From: a virus
Taxonomy: Duplodnaviria; Caudoviricetes
Virus record (IMG/VR): IMGVR_UViG_2974511964_000001
Span: 32,001-96,000 of that record
DNA length: 64,000 nucleotides
Direction: 5' to 3' (one strand)
The first letter of the stretch is position 1; every line of letters starts with the position of its first letter. The notes beneath the pieces are model-generated. The model made no database searches, was not told the origin of the DNA, and saw only the letters and a program-made list of their open reading frames with translations. A program made the translations under genes and the position numbers. This document shows positions 2,113 through 35,618 of the stretch, piece after piece.

Positions 2113-4821
2113 GTGTCACTGTTATCATTTTTACACCCGCTATGGAAACGTAGCCTAAATGAATACGATGATAGCGTTAATAGCGCTGTTATTGGTGCAT
2201 TAAACCAATCCCTTTCTAAGTCGGAAGAAGACATGGTGCAATCTAAAGTTGAGAGTTATCTCTCTACGGCTGATGCTAAGTGGTTGGACTACTGGGGGTA
2301 TTGGTTTGGTGAGCGCCGTAAATCTGGTTGGTCTGACGATTATTATCGTAGTCGTATTGTCAATCATGTTGAACATGCTAGAGGAACCGTTGATGCTCTA
2401 AGAGATGCCATTGCAGATTTTATAAATACTAATAAAGACAATATTTATATATACGAGCCTTATCGTGACATGTTCATATGGAACAGCTCAAAATACAATA
2501 CAAACAAATACTTTTCTAGCACTTATTACCGGTATGCTGTTATTGATATTCAGATAAGTGCAAGCTACCCTAAAGAGATTGTATCAATAATCAATTTATT
2601 TAGGCCAGCTGGGGTATTATGGGTTTTGACAGAAACTGTCAATAGTCGTAATTCTGATGCGCCTATAATTGATATTAAGAATCCTAAAGATGCATTTGTA
2701 CCGAAAATTGAAAATGACTTTATGTTTGGTTTAAGGAAACGCACAAGGCTAATTATTAATCCATCAAATGATAAATATGAGTCGGTTACTAATCCGTTTA
2801 CTTATAATAAGAAAGACTCCCTGTTTAACAACCGAAATTCATTATTCATGGGAGCGACTCAGACAAGCAAAAGATATTCTTTTGTCGGACAGCCTCTATT
2901 TGACTATACCCCAACTGCTAATGATACCTTAGAAAGTTCAAGCTATAAGGTTGAACAACTAAGTAACCCTGATATTACTAGTATATCTACTAAGAATGGC
3001 CGAGGGAAAACGTTTGATTTTAACCCAGTTAAAGACAACCTAATTAGTAATGCTAGTGACTATATCAATGGTGTTAAATTAAATAGTAATACAGGTAATC
3101 CTAACCTAGCACTAGGAACTGCTACGCCGTTCACAATGACTGGTAATGGTTCTGAAAATAATGCAGATTACATGTATCACCTATCGAGAAAAATAGCAAA
3201 GGGGACTACTGTTACTGTAGCCTTTGATATTACGACACAAAATCCAACAGGTAAATACACTTTTCAATTTGCAGGAGGTTTATGGCAGGGAGTCTATCCC
3301 GCGTTACCACTGGTGTCTGGAACACACCATCAATCATATACTATTGTGACAGACAATGACTATTCAGATGGTGTTCGACTGCGACTATATAACTCAACGG
3401 AAACAGTGACTGTTTCTAACTTCATTATCTCTGAGTCTCCAACAGAGGTAGCTTGGATTCCTGCTCCGTCAGAGCAAACTACTAGTCAAAGTGGTAGCTT
3501 AGTAATACCTATTGCGAATGTAAATCCAGATGGTGTATATAGTTTTTCTACTGTTTCAATGTCAGATAAGGACTCGTCAAATGCTAGCCTTAATTTAGTA
3601 TTAAAGGATAAATTAGGAAATGATATAACTAGTAATATAACTACTAGCATTTCAAGTGGGAAGAATATATTACGTATCAATCCAAAAACTAGCACTAATT
3701 TTTCTAGCAACGGATATGCTGTCATAAGTTTCAGTGGAATTAGCAATACAGATAACATATCAATAAGTCTACTGTGCTTAAAGTTTTCTAAATCACTGGA
3801 TGTTACTAATCGAAACTTGCTAACCGGTACTGGTTCTCGTACTGTTACAGGTACAGGATTATGGGTATCAGGTTACCTTTCAAATGAAACTACTAATGAT
3901 TTTATATCTCTATTTCATGGATTAGAAGGGGAAACGGTAACGATATCAGTTGACTATGCATATCAAGGGTTTGTTAAAGGAAGCAGTCAAAACAAGATAG
4001 GTTGGGAAGTAGGCATAGTTACAGATAGCACAACCACCTATCAGGGTTGTTGGTATTATGCTGATTCTTCTACTAATAGTTCAGGTTCCGGTAGAATGTC
4101 ACACACATTTGTAGTACCAGAAAATGTAACAAGCATTAGTGGAAGTGCTAAGGGCTGGGTTGAATTTTCTGGTTCTGGGACTGGAACTTTAAGTCATCTT
4201 AAATTGGAAAAAGGAAGTGTAGCTACCCCATGGAGTCCTGCACCAGAAGATAGCATAGAGGGTAATACGGATAACACTAACCCTATAAGTTGGGCACAAT
4301 CTGCTGATGAAGAAACAAATACACCAACAAAATTAGCTGATGTAATTGACTTAAAAGGTTTTATAAATGATAATTATAAAACTTTAGGAACAACCATAAC
4401 AAATAAAGAGCTTAATGACTTATTTGATACTAAGAAACTTCATCTGGTTATTAGGACTGTTAACGCTACATCTGATTCACTGACAATTAGATTCTTTAAT
4501 TTTAATACTAATCTATGGGTAACATATGGTAAATTTGACATTGCCGGTAGTTATACAGATATATTTGTTAAGTTAGACGATATTACACCGTTGATGAATG
4601 CAAAGTCTTTGATGTATGCATCAATAGAATTTTCTAACGATAGAAGCATATCCGTTAACCTAGACTATATTGGTTTATCGTTATCTAATAGTGAAGATGG
4701 ATACAGTGTTAAAATGTTTTCAGACCAGTCTCCATATGGTATTGAATCACAGAGTGTAATGGGGCCATTTACAATTTCTAAATCTTCTGTTTCGAGAGCA
4801 TATATTAGCCCATCAGAATAG
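2113..4821 (+). CDS. Baseplate/tail protein carrying inserted carbohydrate-binding-like modules
   Basis: WLDYWGYWFG..R..GWSDD.YR.RI and FRPAGV wedge motifs; two internal NL..GT...W.PAP(S/E)E/D modules. Confidence 0.75.
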   Translation: MSLLSFLHPLWKRSLNEYDDSVNSAVIGALNQSLSKSEEDMVQSKVESYLSTADAKWLDYWGYWFGERRKSGWSDDYYRSRIVNHVEHARGTVDALRDAIADFINTNKDNIYIYEPYRDMFIWNSSKYNTNKYFSSTYYRYAVIDIQISASYPKEIVSIINLFRPAGVLWVLTETVNSRNSDAPIIDIKNPKDAFVPKIENDFMFGLRKRTRLIINPSNDKYESVTNPFTYNKKDSLFNNRNSLFMGATQTSKRYSFVGQPLFDYTPTANDTLESSSYKVEQLSNPDITSISTKNGRGKTFDFNPVKDNLISNASDYINGVKLNSNTGNPNLALGTATPFTMTGNGSENNADYMYHLSRKIAKGTTVTVAFDITTQNPTGKYTFQFAGGLWQGVYPALPLVSGTHHQSYTIVTDNDYSDGVRLRLYNSTETVTVSNFIISESPTEVAWIPAPSEQTTSQSGSLVIPIANVNPDGVYSFSTVSMSDKDSSNASLNLVLKDKLGNDITSNITTSISSGKNILRINPKTSTNFSSNGYAVISFSGISNTDNISISLLCLKFSKSLDVTNRNLLTGTGSRTVTGTGLWVSGYLSNETTNDFISLFHGLEGETVTISVDYAYQGFVKGSSQNKIGWEVGIVTDSTTTYQGCWYYADSSTNSSGSGRMSHTFVVPENVTSISGSAKGWVEFSGSGTGTLSHLKLEKGSVATPWSPAPEDSIEGNTDNTNPISWAQSADEETNTPTKLADVIDLKGFINDNYKTLGTTITNKELNDLFDTKKLHLVIRTVNATSDSLTIRFFNFNTNLWVTYGKFDIAGSYTDIFVKLDDITPLMNAKSLMYASIEFSNDRSISVNLDYIGLSLSNSEDGYSVKMFSDQSPYGIESQSVMGPFTISKSSVSRAYISPSE
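4774..4814 (+). repeat. 41-bp perfect direct repeat, copy 1 (copy 2 at 42089-42129)
   Basis: ATTTCTAAATCTTCTGTTTCGAGAGCATATATTAGCCCATC at both sites. Confidence 0.95.
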
Positions 4822-31452: not shown

Positions 31453-33710
31453 ATGGTTAAAGTAATGGCAGTACTAGAGTTCCCTAGAGTATCATATTTC
31501 AAGAAGTCTACTAATGGAGAGTATGATTTTAATTTTATGTCTACTAGGGCTGGAAAGCTACTAAATAAGACATTGACAGCTCCTAGAGCAGGATTAGGAC
31601 TTGATTTAAAAGATGTTGATATAGAATTTGCGTATGATTCTATTCCAAAAGTATATAAAGACAATAGCTATGCACCTATCTCAATTAAATCTGGTAAGCC
31701 TTCCTTTGATAGATTAAAAGCTAAGATAGCAGAAACTAATCCAGATTTACTATTAGCGTTTGGTGGCACATCTTGTTTAGCATTGTTGGGTAAGAAGGGG
31801 GTTAATGACCTAAGAGGACGCCCTTATGATTTATCCTTAGAGAATAGAACTTACACTGTTTTCCCAATGCTTAACCCAGAAGATATTTTAACTTCACCTA
31901 ATAAAGAACTACTGTTAAAAGTTGATATTGGTCTAGTTAAACGATTTTTAAAGGGTGGCAAGGAAGCTTTAAAGCCTAACGTAGGTAAGTATGAACTGGT
32001 GGAAGACTTTAGTAGAGTTAAACAAATATTTACTAACATTTTAGGGTTACCCCCATTGTCTAAGCCTAAATATAATATTGTAGCAGTCGATACCGAAACT
32101 AATACACTGGAAACTAACAACAAGGGTGCTAAGCCTATTATTCTATCATTGTCATGGGAAGAGCACCAAGGAGTATGTATCCCTCTAAAGCATGATTTAG
32201 TCCCAGATTTATGGACAGATGAACAGTTTAACCAAATAAAACAGTGGATACTAGATTTATTTGAAGCGGACCAGTGGAAGGTTCTACACAATGGGAAATA
32301 TGATATCAAGATGTTTATGGATACTTATGGGCTAAAACATGCTCGCAAGTGTGTGGATACCTTAATCATGTTCTGGATTAGCGTTATCGAAGAAAGCACA
32401 GTCAGCAAAGGGTTGAAGGATTTAGCTTGGTTATATACGGATATGGGTGGTTATGAAGAACCACTAGATGAATTTAAAGAATCCTATGTACAAAAGGATT
32501 ATGACCGTTGGTATAAGGAAGAGGAGCAGCGATTAATTGATGAGGCTAAAGCTAATCCATTAAAAACAGGTAAGCCTCGCAAGCCTAAATTACCAGCCAA
32601 GTCGAATTACCCCGGATTAGTTAACAAAGTGGATGGTAGCAAGTTTAACTATGAATGGATTCCATTAGAAATTATTTACCCGTATGCTGCCGGTGACACT
32701 GATGCTTGTTTACGGATTTATAATCAGTTGTTTAAGAAGGTTAAAACTAATCCTAATTGGGTAAACTTAGTGTTCAATGTGTATCCTAAGCTAGATGATG
32801 CCTTATGCCATATGGAACATAACGGTTTACAAATTGACAATAACAAGGCCAAAGAGCTGGCTAAGGCTTATGGTGACCGTAAAGAAAACACCTTGAATGC
32901 TATTCATAAGATAGTTCCAGAGATTAAGCAGGTAGAGCAAGAGAGAATTGATAACCTAGCTAAGCGAGCTAAACTAATGGCAAGTGTTAAGCCTAAGGAT
33001 AGAACTGAGGAAGATAAAGCTTTCATCAAAGAGGCTGGTAAGTACAACGGTAACAACCCTAAGACTGGTGAGCCAAAGTATAAAGTTAATTTAGACTCGA
33101 ATAATGACCTCGGATATATTCTGTATGAAGTATTGGGGTATACCTTACCACCAGAACCAAACTTTCTAACTGATACTACTGTTAAGCACCGTATTCCACA
33201 AGATAAGCTAACTTATAAAAACTATCGAGTTAATATCGAGGCTATTGAGTATATTCGTGATAACTATGATAAGAAGCTAGGTGAGTTGCTAGTAACGTAT
33301 AGTAAGACTGTTACTGCCTTGTCAGGTTTTGTGCTTAAGTTACCAGCATTACAAGACCCTAATGGGAGAATCCATACTAGGTTTAACCCAACTGGTACAG
33401 TTACAAGCCGCCTTAGCTCGTCAGGAAATTTTAATGCTCAGAACCTTACTAGGCCAGAAACAGACCCCCGCAAGTTTAATCATAAGTATTCAGTTAAGTC
33501 AATGATTCATTCCCGTTTTAAGGGTGGTGTTATTGCCAATATTGACTTTAAATCACTGGAAGTATATGTAATGGCACTTATCTCTAAAGACCGCTCCTTA
33601 ACGCAAACATTACTAGATAATAAAGATGTTCATAAGCATAATGCTAGTGTTGCCTATGGTATACCGGAAGAGGATGTAACTAAGGATTTACGAACGAAAG
33701 CAAAAGCCGT
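31453..33710 (+). CDS. Family A DNA polymerase, exon 1 (UDG-like N-domain, 3'-5' exonuclease, motif A)
   Basis: VDTET, HNGKYD, YAAGD, TGTVTSRLSS, DFKSLE, DVH, R.KAKAV. Confidence 0.92.
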
Positions 33711-34858
33711 AGACTAAGTTGCGGCGTACCCCAGCGATGGGATATGGAAAACCTGTTGAAGTCGGGCATGGCTAAAGTAAGATAAAAATACCCAACCTCT
33801 GAAAAGAGGACGAGAAAGCCGATAAGAGAGCCTACGTCCATGCTAGTGGATAGTGGTAATCCCGAGCCAAGAATCTATTTATCTCTGCTGATTGAAAGGG
33901 CGGAGTAAGATAATATGAACTATCATAACTTAAAAATACTAATTAAAGACAATAATAAGTATGCTAAGAGTTTAAACAATAAATTGCATAATCTGCAAAA
34001 AAGAGTAGTTGATAAATGTACTAATCCTAATAATAAGAAATATCATGTTTACGGTGGCCGAGGAGTCTCTTATGACCCAAACTGGAATGACCCAGAAAAT
34101 TTTGTTAGAGACGCCCTATCAATAGATGGTTTTAATACTATGGAGTTCTTAAAAGGGAACCTACAGCTCGATAAGGATTGTAAAGACCCAAATGGTAAAA
34201 TGTATAATAAGAACTTATGTACTTGGCTATCTAATAATGAAAACGAGAAAGTAAAGCCATCGAGATGGAAGGACTACCATGCTTATTGTTATGACAAAGA
34301 AACGCTTTACAATTTTAATGAAATAACAAAAGCAACTGACTCACTGGGAATAAATAGAACTGCAATTAATAGAGCATTAGCTAGAAACTCTAGTGAGAAC
34401 CGTAAACTTACCCCTACAACAACAATGGGGTGGATATTCTGGGAAGGTAATAATAAACCCTCTAGATTTAAGGAGTATAGCGCTAGTAATATTGATGGTA
34501 CTATCAGGGTAAAGTCTTTAACCCAGAGCAAGGTAGAAAAACTATTAGGAATCGGTGGGTCTAAGTTTCATAAGATGTTAAAATCTGGTAAGAGTAAATG
34601 CTTGTATAAAAACAAGTTTGTACTGGAAATTTCTAATGTTGACCTAGACAAGCCGAAATATATTGTTAATTTTTAGTGGATGATAGATAGATTAAGGTGT
34701 AGAGACTATCGAAACGGTAAGCTAATATTACAGGTATTAGCTGAGAACGGAGTAGAGTACACATGCAAATGTGGAAGTGGCAGGGTTCTTATAGTAACGT
34801 ATAAGAATAGGATATAGTCCATGGTAACTTAAATAGGTGAAAACTAATCGTTACCATA
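33711..34858 (+). mobile_element. Group I intron (IA-like) in DNA polymerase motif B; predicted terminal nucleotide is A
   Basis: P1 GCCGU|A..UGCGGC with U-G pair; P7 GAGACUA (34702-34708) / UAGUCC (34815-34820); P8; P9 AUGGUAAC/GUUACCAU; P10 AAGUU/AACUU; splicing restores KAKAVTFGLLYG. Confidence 0.9.
33915..34676 (+). CDS. Intron-encoded HNH-type homing endonuclease
   Basis: C.NPN...Y..YGGRG, LDKD...Y....C.W....N; C-terminal NUMOD/HTH-like repeats. Confidence 0.8.
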   Translation: MNYHNLKILIKDNNKYAKSLNNKLHNLQKRVVDKCTNPNNKKYHVYGGRGVSYDPNWNDPENFVRDALSIDGFNTMEFLKGNLQLDKDCKDPNGKMYNKNLCTWLSNNENEKVKPSRWKDYHAYCYDKETLYNFNEITKATDSLGINRTAINRALARNSSENRKLTPTTTMGWIFWEGNNKPSRFKEYSASNIDGTIRVKSLTQSKVEKLLGIGGSKFHKMLKSGKSKCLYKNKFVLEISNVDLDKPKYIVNF

Positions 34859-35618
34859 AACTTTTGGCTTATTATATGGTGAGTCTGCCAGCGGTATGGC
34901 TACTAAGCAAGGTATCAGCATAGATGAAGCACAAGAAACAATTGACAAGATTCTAGGAGCTATGCCGGGGGTTAGAGACTTTATTGAACGAACACACGAA
35001 GAAGCTAAACGTAACTATTATGTAGAGACTATGGTTGGCTTTAGACGGCGTTTAGGTGACTTAAAGAGTAATGACCGTGGGAAGTCATCACGAGCACTTA
35101 GGCAGTCAGTCAATGCTATCATTCAAGGTTCTGGTTCTAGTTTGCTAGTATTAGGGTTAATTAAGGCTAGAGAGCTATTTGAGAAATATCATATGAAGTC
35201 AGTCTTAGCCATCACTGTTCATGACTCCATTGTAATTGACTGTCATCCAGATGAAGTGGCTAAGGCAATTGAGATTGTTAAGTGGAGCATGGAGCATGTA
35301 GACTTACCTATCTTAGTTAATAATGATGCTACTGGTTATAATGTGCCAGAACAGTATCAGTTACCAGACAATAAGTTTAGATTCCCACTTAGAGCCGAAC
35401 CAGAAGTAGGATTAAATTACAATGACGATGTTGACTTTGACCTAGAGGACTATAAGAAGTTCGCTAGTGCCTATGGGTATTGCCAATATAACTATGCAAT
35501 GACTAAGCTAAACCAGTTAATTGAATACGAAGTTGAACCAGAAGAGGAAGTCAACAAGAAGAAGGCTAAACTTGAAGAAGCTAAGCCAGTATTTGAAAGG
35601 CTACAATATGAAGGATGA
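34859..35618 (+). CDS. Family A DNA polymerase, exon 2
   Basis: TFGLLYG, GFRRR, NAIIQG, TVHDS (motif C); spliced product about 1005 aa. Confidence 0.92.

Follow-up and report, generated by a model that had tools for sequence, protein, structure and literature searches.

The family-A DNA polymerase gene (polA) of a phage of Lactobacillus plantarum, which has Herelleviridae of the genus Harbinvirus from the same host species as its closest relatives, is interrupted by a group I intron of 1148 nt (33711-34858), the last nucleotide of which is A and not the terminal guanosine (omega G) found in nearly all group I introns. The intron is of the IA type, with the additional hairpins P7.1 and P7.2, and its P6 loop contains a gene resembling those of homing endonucleases; its assignment rests on the intron-less alleles of the phages Bacchae and Semele, on its helices and on their covariation. 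Positions refer to the window, that is, to the whole stretch of 64,000 nucleotides that was analysed, which is part of a 137,973-bp IMG/VR virus record, and all features of the polymerase locus lie on its plus strand. The anatomy of the intron, its junction, its conservation and the covariation of its helices are established, and from these sequence data we put the probability that it is an active, self-splicing intron ending in A at about 0.8. The terminal A is a rare exception, albeit one already documented, and it recurs in introns of related phages.

The insertion site and the 3' junction

Exon 1 of the polymerase (31453-33710), recognised from the list of open reading frames, from the Pfam DNA_pol_A_exo1 (3'-5' exonuclease) profile and from the intron-less alleles, ends in ...AAA GCC GU. 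Unspliced RNA then meets an in-frame UAA at 33715-33717, such that the open reading frame runs from 31453 to 33717. Exon 2 (34859-35618; Pfam DNA_pol_A, intron-less alleles) starts with A ACU UUU GGC, which finishes a Val codon and continues with the Thr-Phe-Gly of motif B. In other words, the intron separates bases 2 and 3 of the codon for the Val of polymerase motif B (K-A-V^T-F-G, where the caret marks the interruption, as it does below). Exon 1 matches the Pfam DNA_pol_A profile at positions 29-212, and exon 2, in the frame from 34860, matches it at 215-368; the two polymerase pieces thus abut in the profile.

The boundary was fixed by comparison with the intron-less polA alleles of Bacchae, in which the gene is uninterrupted, and of Semele, in which it is uninterrupted at this site and has another insertion some 290 nt upstream. 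The junction in these alleles reads GCCGTGACTTTC in Bacchae (codons GCC GTG ACT TTC GGC) and GCCGTAACTTTTGGC in Semele (GCC GTA ACT TTT GGC), while the window has GCCGT, then 1148 nt and then AACTTTTGGC. At the level of RNA the window reads GCCGU^A...CCAUA^AACUUUU, and the expected spliced junction is GCCGU-AACUUUUGG. The sole alternative placement is a slide by one nucleotide, to 33712-34859, and A is the last base in both versions. A first-pass annotation, made from the letters of the window, had proposed a group I intron in polA ending in A with its boundary at 34858/34859, had held that this boundary restores the reading frame, and had reported that the nearby Gs fail as 3' sites. All of this stands. 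The intron-less alleles place the boundary exactly there, and the spliced open reading frame has 1005 codons, equal to the length of the uninterrupted Bacchae gene. Moreover, when every in-frame 3' site after a G was enumerated, none kept the Thr-Phe of motif B; this motif has the spacing R-x3-K-x3-F-x3-Y, and the closest such sites, G34866 and G34867, lose its invariant Phe.

The A at 34858 is confirmed as genuine and conserved, and is no sequencing error. The related phage Lpa804, a cultured isolate from sauerkraut (host strain PA106), has 95% identity across the region and the same insertion in polA, with 5' and 3' splice-site sequences identical to those of the window. The window's intron is also found at the identical polA site in a contig from a metagenome scan, JXWR01000006.1 (hereafter L013), where it spans positions 677-1013 and is only 337 nt long, the open reading frame in the P6 loop being replaced by a 15-nt hairpin; the same replacement occurs in an X18 contig. 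The terminal A is thereby present in three independent assemblies, and since it is kept in the isolate Lpa804, and in L013 despite an altered P9, neither an error nor a recent lethal mutation can account for it. A single DNA contig covers base 34858, only 4 nt from the contig end, and is therefore uninformative.

Contigs assembled from RNA runs contain exon-exon joints, but these are either of the Bacchae-type allele, which occurs in a DNA run as well, or, in the case of a joint from 33710 to 34859, carry 11 mismatches in exon 2. As these joints belong to other alleles, and as joined forms exist as DNA in intron-less phages, the RNA contigs could equally derive from intron-less phages, whether from their transcripts or their DNA, and count neither for nor against splicing.

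Scans of the sequence collections with both splice junctions and with the S element returned only Lpa804, L013 and one further contig with a partial 5' end (L012). A match in a genome contig (L014) was set aside as a chance match, lying as it does inside a bacterial coding region.

Architecture of the intron and its reading frame

The 5' splice site lies in a P1 hairpin (33706-33725) which is formed by the exon sequence GCCGU (33706-33710) and an internal guide, GCGGC (33721-33725), with all five pairs made and the wobble U33710.G33721 at the splice site itself. The loop of P1 contains AAGUU (33716-33720), which can pair at each of its five positions with AACUU at the start of exon 2 (34859-34863) to give a P10 helix contiguous with P1. 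Next comes P2 (33730-33741; identified by a pairing check), a 4-bp stem closed by a GCGA tetraloop, which is GUGA in Lpa804 and L013. P3 is formed by CCUGU (33752-33756) and GCAGG (34780-34784), with 5/5 pairs. P4 pairs UCGGG (33762-33766) with CCCGA (33861-33865) over its full length and encloses P5 (33767-33771 with 33838-33842), the whole unit spanning 33762-33865; within it lies P5b (33796-33809), which has a GAAA loop, and the region from P4 to P5b is similar to that of many Herelleviridae introns. P6 (33872-33883 with 34682-34693) is paired at 12 of 12 positions and closes the 798-nt loop that holds the open reading frame.

The 5' strand of P7, the R element (34702-34709), consists of G34702, a bulged A34703 and GACUAU, and the 3' strand, the S element, of AUAGUCC (34814-34820). 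G34702 pairs with C34820, and G34704 to U34709 pair with A34814 to C34819, such that G34704, the guanosine-binding base, is paired with C34819 and the guanosine-binding pair is G34704-C34819. Between the 5' strand of P7 and the 3' strand of P3 are two extra hairpins (34720-34773, from pairing), P7.1 of 8 bp (34720-34727 with 34735-34742), which has compensatory changes at seven of its eight pairs, and P7.2 (34760-34764 with 34769-34773), which has a GCAA loop. P8 (34786-34807) is a hairpin of 8 bp supported by pairing and by covariation.

P9 (34821-34857) begins right after P7 and stops right before the last intron base. It comprises an 8-bp stem of AUGGUAAC (34821-34828) and GUUACCAU (34850-34857), paired at 8/8 positions, and, inside it, a second stem with a GAAA loop; the outermost two pairs of P9, A34821-U34857 and U34822-A34856, are P9.0-like. 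In L013 the two strands are AGCAUGUC and GACAUGCU, as against AUGGUAAC and GUUACCAU in the window, with five of the eight pairs altered on both sides and all eight still paired. There too no base separates P7 from P9, behind which come an A and then exon AAC (A^AAC).

The pairing scheme was examined further on an alignment of the 3' halves of seven introns, in which 93.6% of cells are paired and 19 of the 36 pairs show compensatory changes. Values this high were obtained in none of 500 shuffles, and in a control in which the partners were slid by 1-3 columns only 26-41% of cells were paired, which points to a ribozyme under selection. Each of the seven aligned introns has G-C as its guanosine-binding pair. 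The first-pass annotation had described a P10 between AAGUU and AACUU, a P9 ending at 34857 ahead of an A, and a P7 with a normal G-binding G-C pair, and the structure bears out each of these.

The features of a group I intron are thus present, namely a U.G wobble in P1 with an internal guide, a P3-P8 core in which all helices are fully paired and a P7 with a bulged nucleotide formed from R and S elements. The feature of subgroup IA is present as well, in the hairpins P7.1 and P7.2 that precede the 3' strand of P3. An exact copy of the S-element consensus, GATATAGTC, also occurs on the minus strand of the window at 3058-3066, and such matches are at chance level.

The open reading frame in the P6 loop (33915-34676) encodes 253 amino acids; the product is a putative homing endonuclease, and the family to which it belongs is uncertain. 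It matches PHROG 2081, annotated as 'HNH endonuclease', with an E value of 4e-27, and the matching PHROG families are labelled either HNH or restriction endonuclease; in relatives the frame is likewise annotated as an HNH endonuclease. Searches against Pfam, NCBIfam and the PDB gave nothing above threshold, and no HNH (beta-beta-alpha-metal) domain was detected. The N-terminal 100 amino acids have 34% identity to the intron ORF of Semele, and the intron ORFs of the window and Semele have in common a conserved S-I-D-G ... Q-L-D-K-D-x-K stretch, a sequence pattern which might be that of a nuclease of the PD-(D/E)xK type.

Neighbouring introns and the choice of 3' splice site

Besides the polA intron of the window, two intron lineages are without a terminal G. 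The first is the upstream polA intron of Semele and L013 (L003 1608-2896; L013 about 360-386), which is inserted at GTGACCT^CACGATT in the motif T-S-R-L-S-S and ends ...AAUAAGA^CACGA. The intron-less alleles permit no slide here, and from its sequence the intron appears to end in A. A reading with a terminal G would need C at position -1 and would change to Thr a Ser that is conserved under four codons. The second is the large-terminase intron of LP65 (L015 about 1246-2569), which is inserted at a YTFP^T site, ends ...UAAAAUAAAA^ACACAAG, and has ...AAUAAAA^ as its last bases with no G within 11 nt.

A terminal G is present in four neighbouring introns. Three are the terminase introns of the window's own genome (1621-4997, outside the window), each of which follows a U; their ends were checked, the second junction against LP65. 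The intron at the YTFP^T terminase site in this genome ends AAAAUG^. The fourth is the third polA intron of L013 (1024-1373), which has a P1 of CGGU/GCCG and a P10 of UAACAA/UUGUUA and ends AUG^; its ends were placed from these two pairings together with the reading frame, and Rfam gave no match to it.

In these introns the antepenultimate and penultimate bases pair with the two bases just after P7 to make P9.0, which covaries, being CU/AG in Semele, UU/AA in LP65 and AU/AU in the second terminase intron of the window's genome. By this covariation the splice site in the Semele and LP65 introns falls after the A. The layer of P7 that lies above the G-site, in some introns G-C plus a bulged A and in others A-U plus a bulged C, was considered as a correlate of the last base and was dropped, as the two do not track one another: A-U with a bulged C is found in the A-ending Semele intron, and G-C with a bulged A in the G-ending third terminase intron.

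At the site of the Semele intron, the polA gene of the window (33390-33420) is recoded synonymously over six consecutive codons (T-S-R-L-S-S; ACAAGCCGCCTTAGCTCG vs ACCTCACGATTATCAAGT), which could be a signature of escape from a homing-endonuclease target or of co-conversion.

That the RNA of the window intron splices, and how it does so, we infer as follows. The first step would be canonical, with an exogenous guanosine, held in the unchanged G34704-C34819 site, attacking after U33710. In the second step A34858 would be the leaving nucleotide, at a 3' splice site set not by guanosine recognition but by two helices that bracket the A. One would be the P9 stem, stacked directly on P7, with the pairs A34821-U34857 and U34822-A34856 serving as P9.0; the other would be the 5-bp P10, contiguous with P1. 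Exon ligation would probably be slower than with a terminal G, yet sufficient in vivo. The role of P9.0 and P10 in the choice of 3' site is established in the T4 sunY and td introns. Were the site of the window intron set in this way, a terminal G would be dispensable in this type of intron, as it is in Cbu.L1917 and in ND5-717.

In the Tetrahymena intron a change of the terminal G to A strongly impairs exon ligation, from which it follows that a canonical G-site combined with a terminal A is a mismatch, and there is no compensating change in P7 here. The engineered Tetrahymena G264A:C311U ribozyme, in which the binding pair is switched to A-U, reportedly does ligate exons with a terminal A, but since the pair stays G-C in the window intron this switch of specificity does not apply. 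The mismatch is one ground for considering that ligation needs a protein helper, be it a maturase encoded by the intron ORF or an RNA chaperone or helicase from host or phage, and this would sit well with the intact state of the ORF (of its codons, 13 differ synonymously and 7 non-synonymously from those of Lpa804) and with the need of many group I introns for protein factors in vivo, as given in reviews (PMC3984707). However, L013, with its 15-nt hairpin in place of the ORF, retains the terminal A and all the helices, which means that a maturase encoded in cis is not obligatory and weakens the maturase idea; the ORF, moreover, resembles endonucleases and not known maturases. We regard dependence on a helper as unlikely overall, trans-acting host factors being the possible form of it.

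A further view is that the terminal A has been selected, either to slow ligation and so gate the production of polymerase, or to suppress hydrolysis at the 3' site, circularisation or reverse splicing. It could draw on the conservation of the A across a complete replacement of P9, on its recurrence in L. plantarum phages, where at least two further intron lineages end in A, and on the question of regulatory intron retention raised by the authors of the ND5-717 work (PMC6545197). Nevertheless, the same gene accommodates an intron ending in G (the third of L013), and the YTFP^T terminase site holds an A-ending intron in LP65 and a G-ending one in the window's genome; such a mixture of A and G at the same gene or site resembles neutral tolerance more than directed function, and we consider selection of the A quite improbable. 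It is scarcely credible that the intron is dead and the polymerase made as two polypeptides (the exon 1 product and that of an open reading frame at 34896-35618), or that the A is an assembly error, for although the Lpa804 annotators called two DNA polymerase CDSs and the window intron falls under the Rfam cut-off, the second frame starts after motif B and loses its Thr-Phe-Gly-Leu-Leu-Tyr-Gly, the codons for which are in frame with synonymous differences only in five alleles, the ribozyme helices covary, and the three assemblies agree on the A.

Splicing by a ribozyme that tolerates a terminal A is accordingly the reading we prefer, and it may extend beyond this intron. Tentatively, in the IA introns of this class in phages of Gram-positive bacteria the last nucleotide may be no part of 3' site recognition, with P9.0 and P10 sufficing for it, and A and G may replace one another without constraint or else by selection, the latter perhaps to limit circularisation or hydrolysis or to time polymerase synthesis. 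If this were true, the 'obligatory omega G' would fail for a whole natural lineage with an unaltered G-binding site.

Known systems, detection and short exons

The first-pass annotation had listed the coral mitochondrial ND5 introns as the exceptions to omega G. These are indeed exceptions, but not the only ones, since the 23S rRNA intron of Coxiella, Cbu.L1917, offers a bacterial precedent. Cbu.L1917 is reportedly self-splicing in vitro. As far as the title of a paper cited in PMC3428280 (Raghavan et al. 2007, J Bacteriol 189:6572) goes, the Coxiella burnetii 23S rRNA intron is without the canonical omega G, and to that extent the window intron is like it, both being group I introns of the bacterial world without a terminal G. 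Cbu.L1917 stands immediately upstream of a 34-nt exon which is followed by a second intron, and L013 has the same layout around an exon of 10 nt. Unlike the window intron, Cbu.L1917 lies in rRNA and is reported as IB2 or IA3, and it is not of the P7.1/P7.2 Herelleviridae type. The hexacoral mitochondrial intron ND5-717 also shares the terminal A, and its exons are ligated in vivo (PMC6545197, PMC8146996). It differs in being organellar, vertically inherited and giant, with genes in P8, in being partly back-spliced and in having no homing endonuclease.

In its IA type, its endonuclease ORF and its place in conserved family-A motifs, the window intron resembles the IA2 introns in the DNA polymerase genes of the phages SPO1, SP82, Bastille, PhiI/W31, phiL7 and Pf-WMP3, which are self-splicing (PMC3428280). 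The introns of this SPO1 group occupy other insertion sites, the term 'motif B' being unused in that paper (PMC3428280), which gives U at the 5' splice site and guanosine at the 3' end as typical of most group I introns; it is from this pattern that the window intron departs in its last base. Closer in sequence are the tandem introns of Twort orf142, the CF5 endolysin intron and the phiEF17H recA intron, which have the same R and S elements and the P7.1/P7.2 insert, with 71-79% identity. The similarity stops at window position 34819, however, P9 and the 3' end being non-homologous. Several readings fit the 3' site of the phiEF17H recA intron; a canonical site, with U at -1 and a terminal G, is a plausible choice among them, and this intron was left out of the G-ending controls.

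The literature searched contains no description of this intron or of any phage intron ending in A. In the Harbinvirus genome paper an intron or intein in the split polymerase is only speculated upon, and even recent papers describe the terminal G as universally conserved. The terminal guanosine is treated as universal and as mechanistically required, and in this regard the window intron is a tractable counter-example. The polymerase gene of Lpa804, a viable isolate, has an A-ending intron, such that there are at hand a culturable and harmless pair of Lpa804 and L. plantarum, an essential gene, a canonical G-binding site and, in L013, an ORF-less variant of 337 nt. The G-ending introns in the same gene and genome are internal controls for what a terminal G contributes once P9.0 and P10 fix the site.

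Such introns may readily be missed by annotation. Pipelines fragment the polymerase, and intron finders which require either a terminal G or a score above the Rfam cut-off pass over them. The gathering cut-off of the Rfam group I family, RF00028, is 50 bits, and the family gave no match either in the whole window at the gathering threshold or in the intron region at permissive E values. Taken in isolation, the 3' half of the window intron scores 8.4 bits against RF00028, below the cut-off, and the 5' half gave only noise against Rfam. The ORF-less L013 copy reaches 34.8 bits (E 4.4e-7), still below 50 bits, whereas scores of 73-87 bits are obtained for the homologous-core introns of Staphylococcus phage CF5 and Enterococcus phage phiEF17H. 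The window intron falls under the cut-off because of its 798-nt insert in the P6 loop and its IA-specific inserts.

The polA gene of the phage that bears L013 contains three introns, two of which, in the region 677-1373, flank an exon of only 10 nt, AACAUUCGGU (1014-1023). This exon has three differences from the window, all of them synonymous, a pattern which would make sense only if the exon is spliced and translated. The intron upstream of it ends in A and the one downstream in G. Tandem introns around short exons are known, with an exon of 23 nt in Twort (PMC10136302), and the 10-nt exon of L013 is shorter than the short exons of both Twort (23 nt) and Coxiella (34 nt; PMC10136302).
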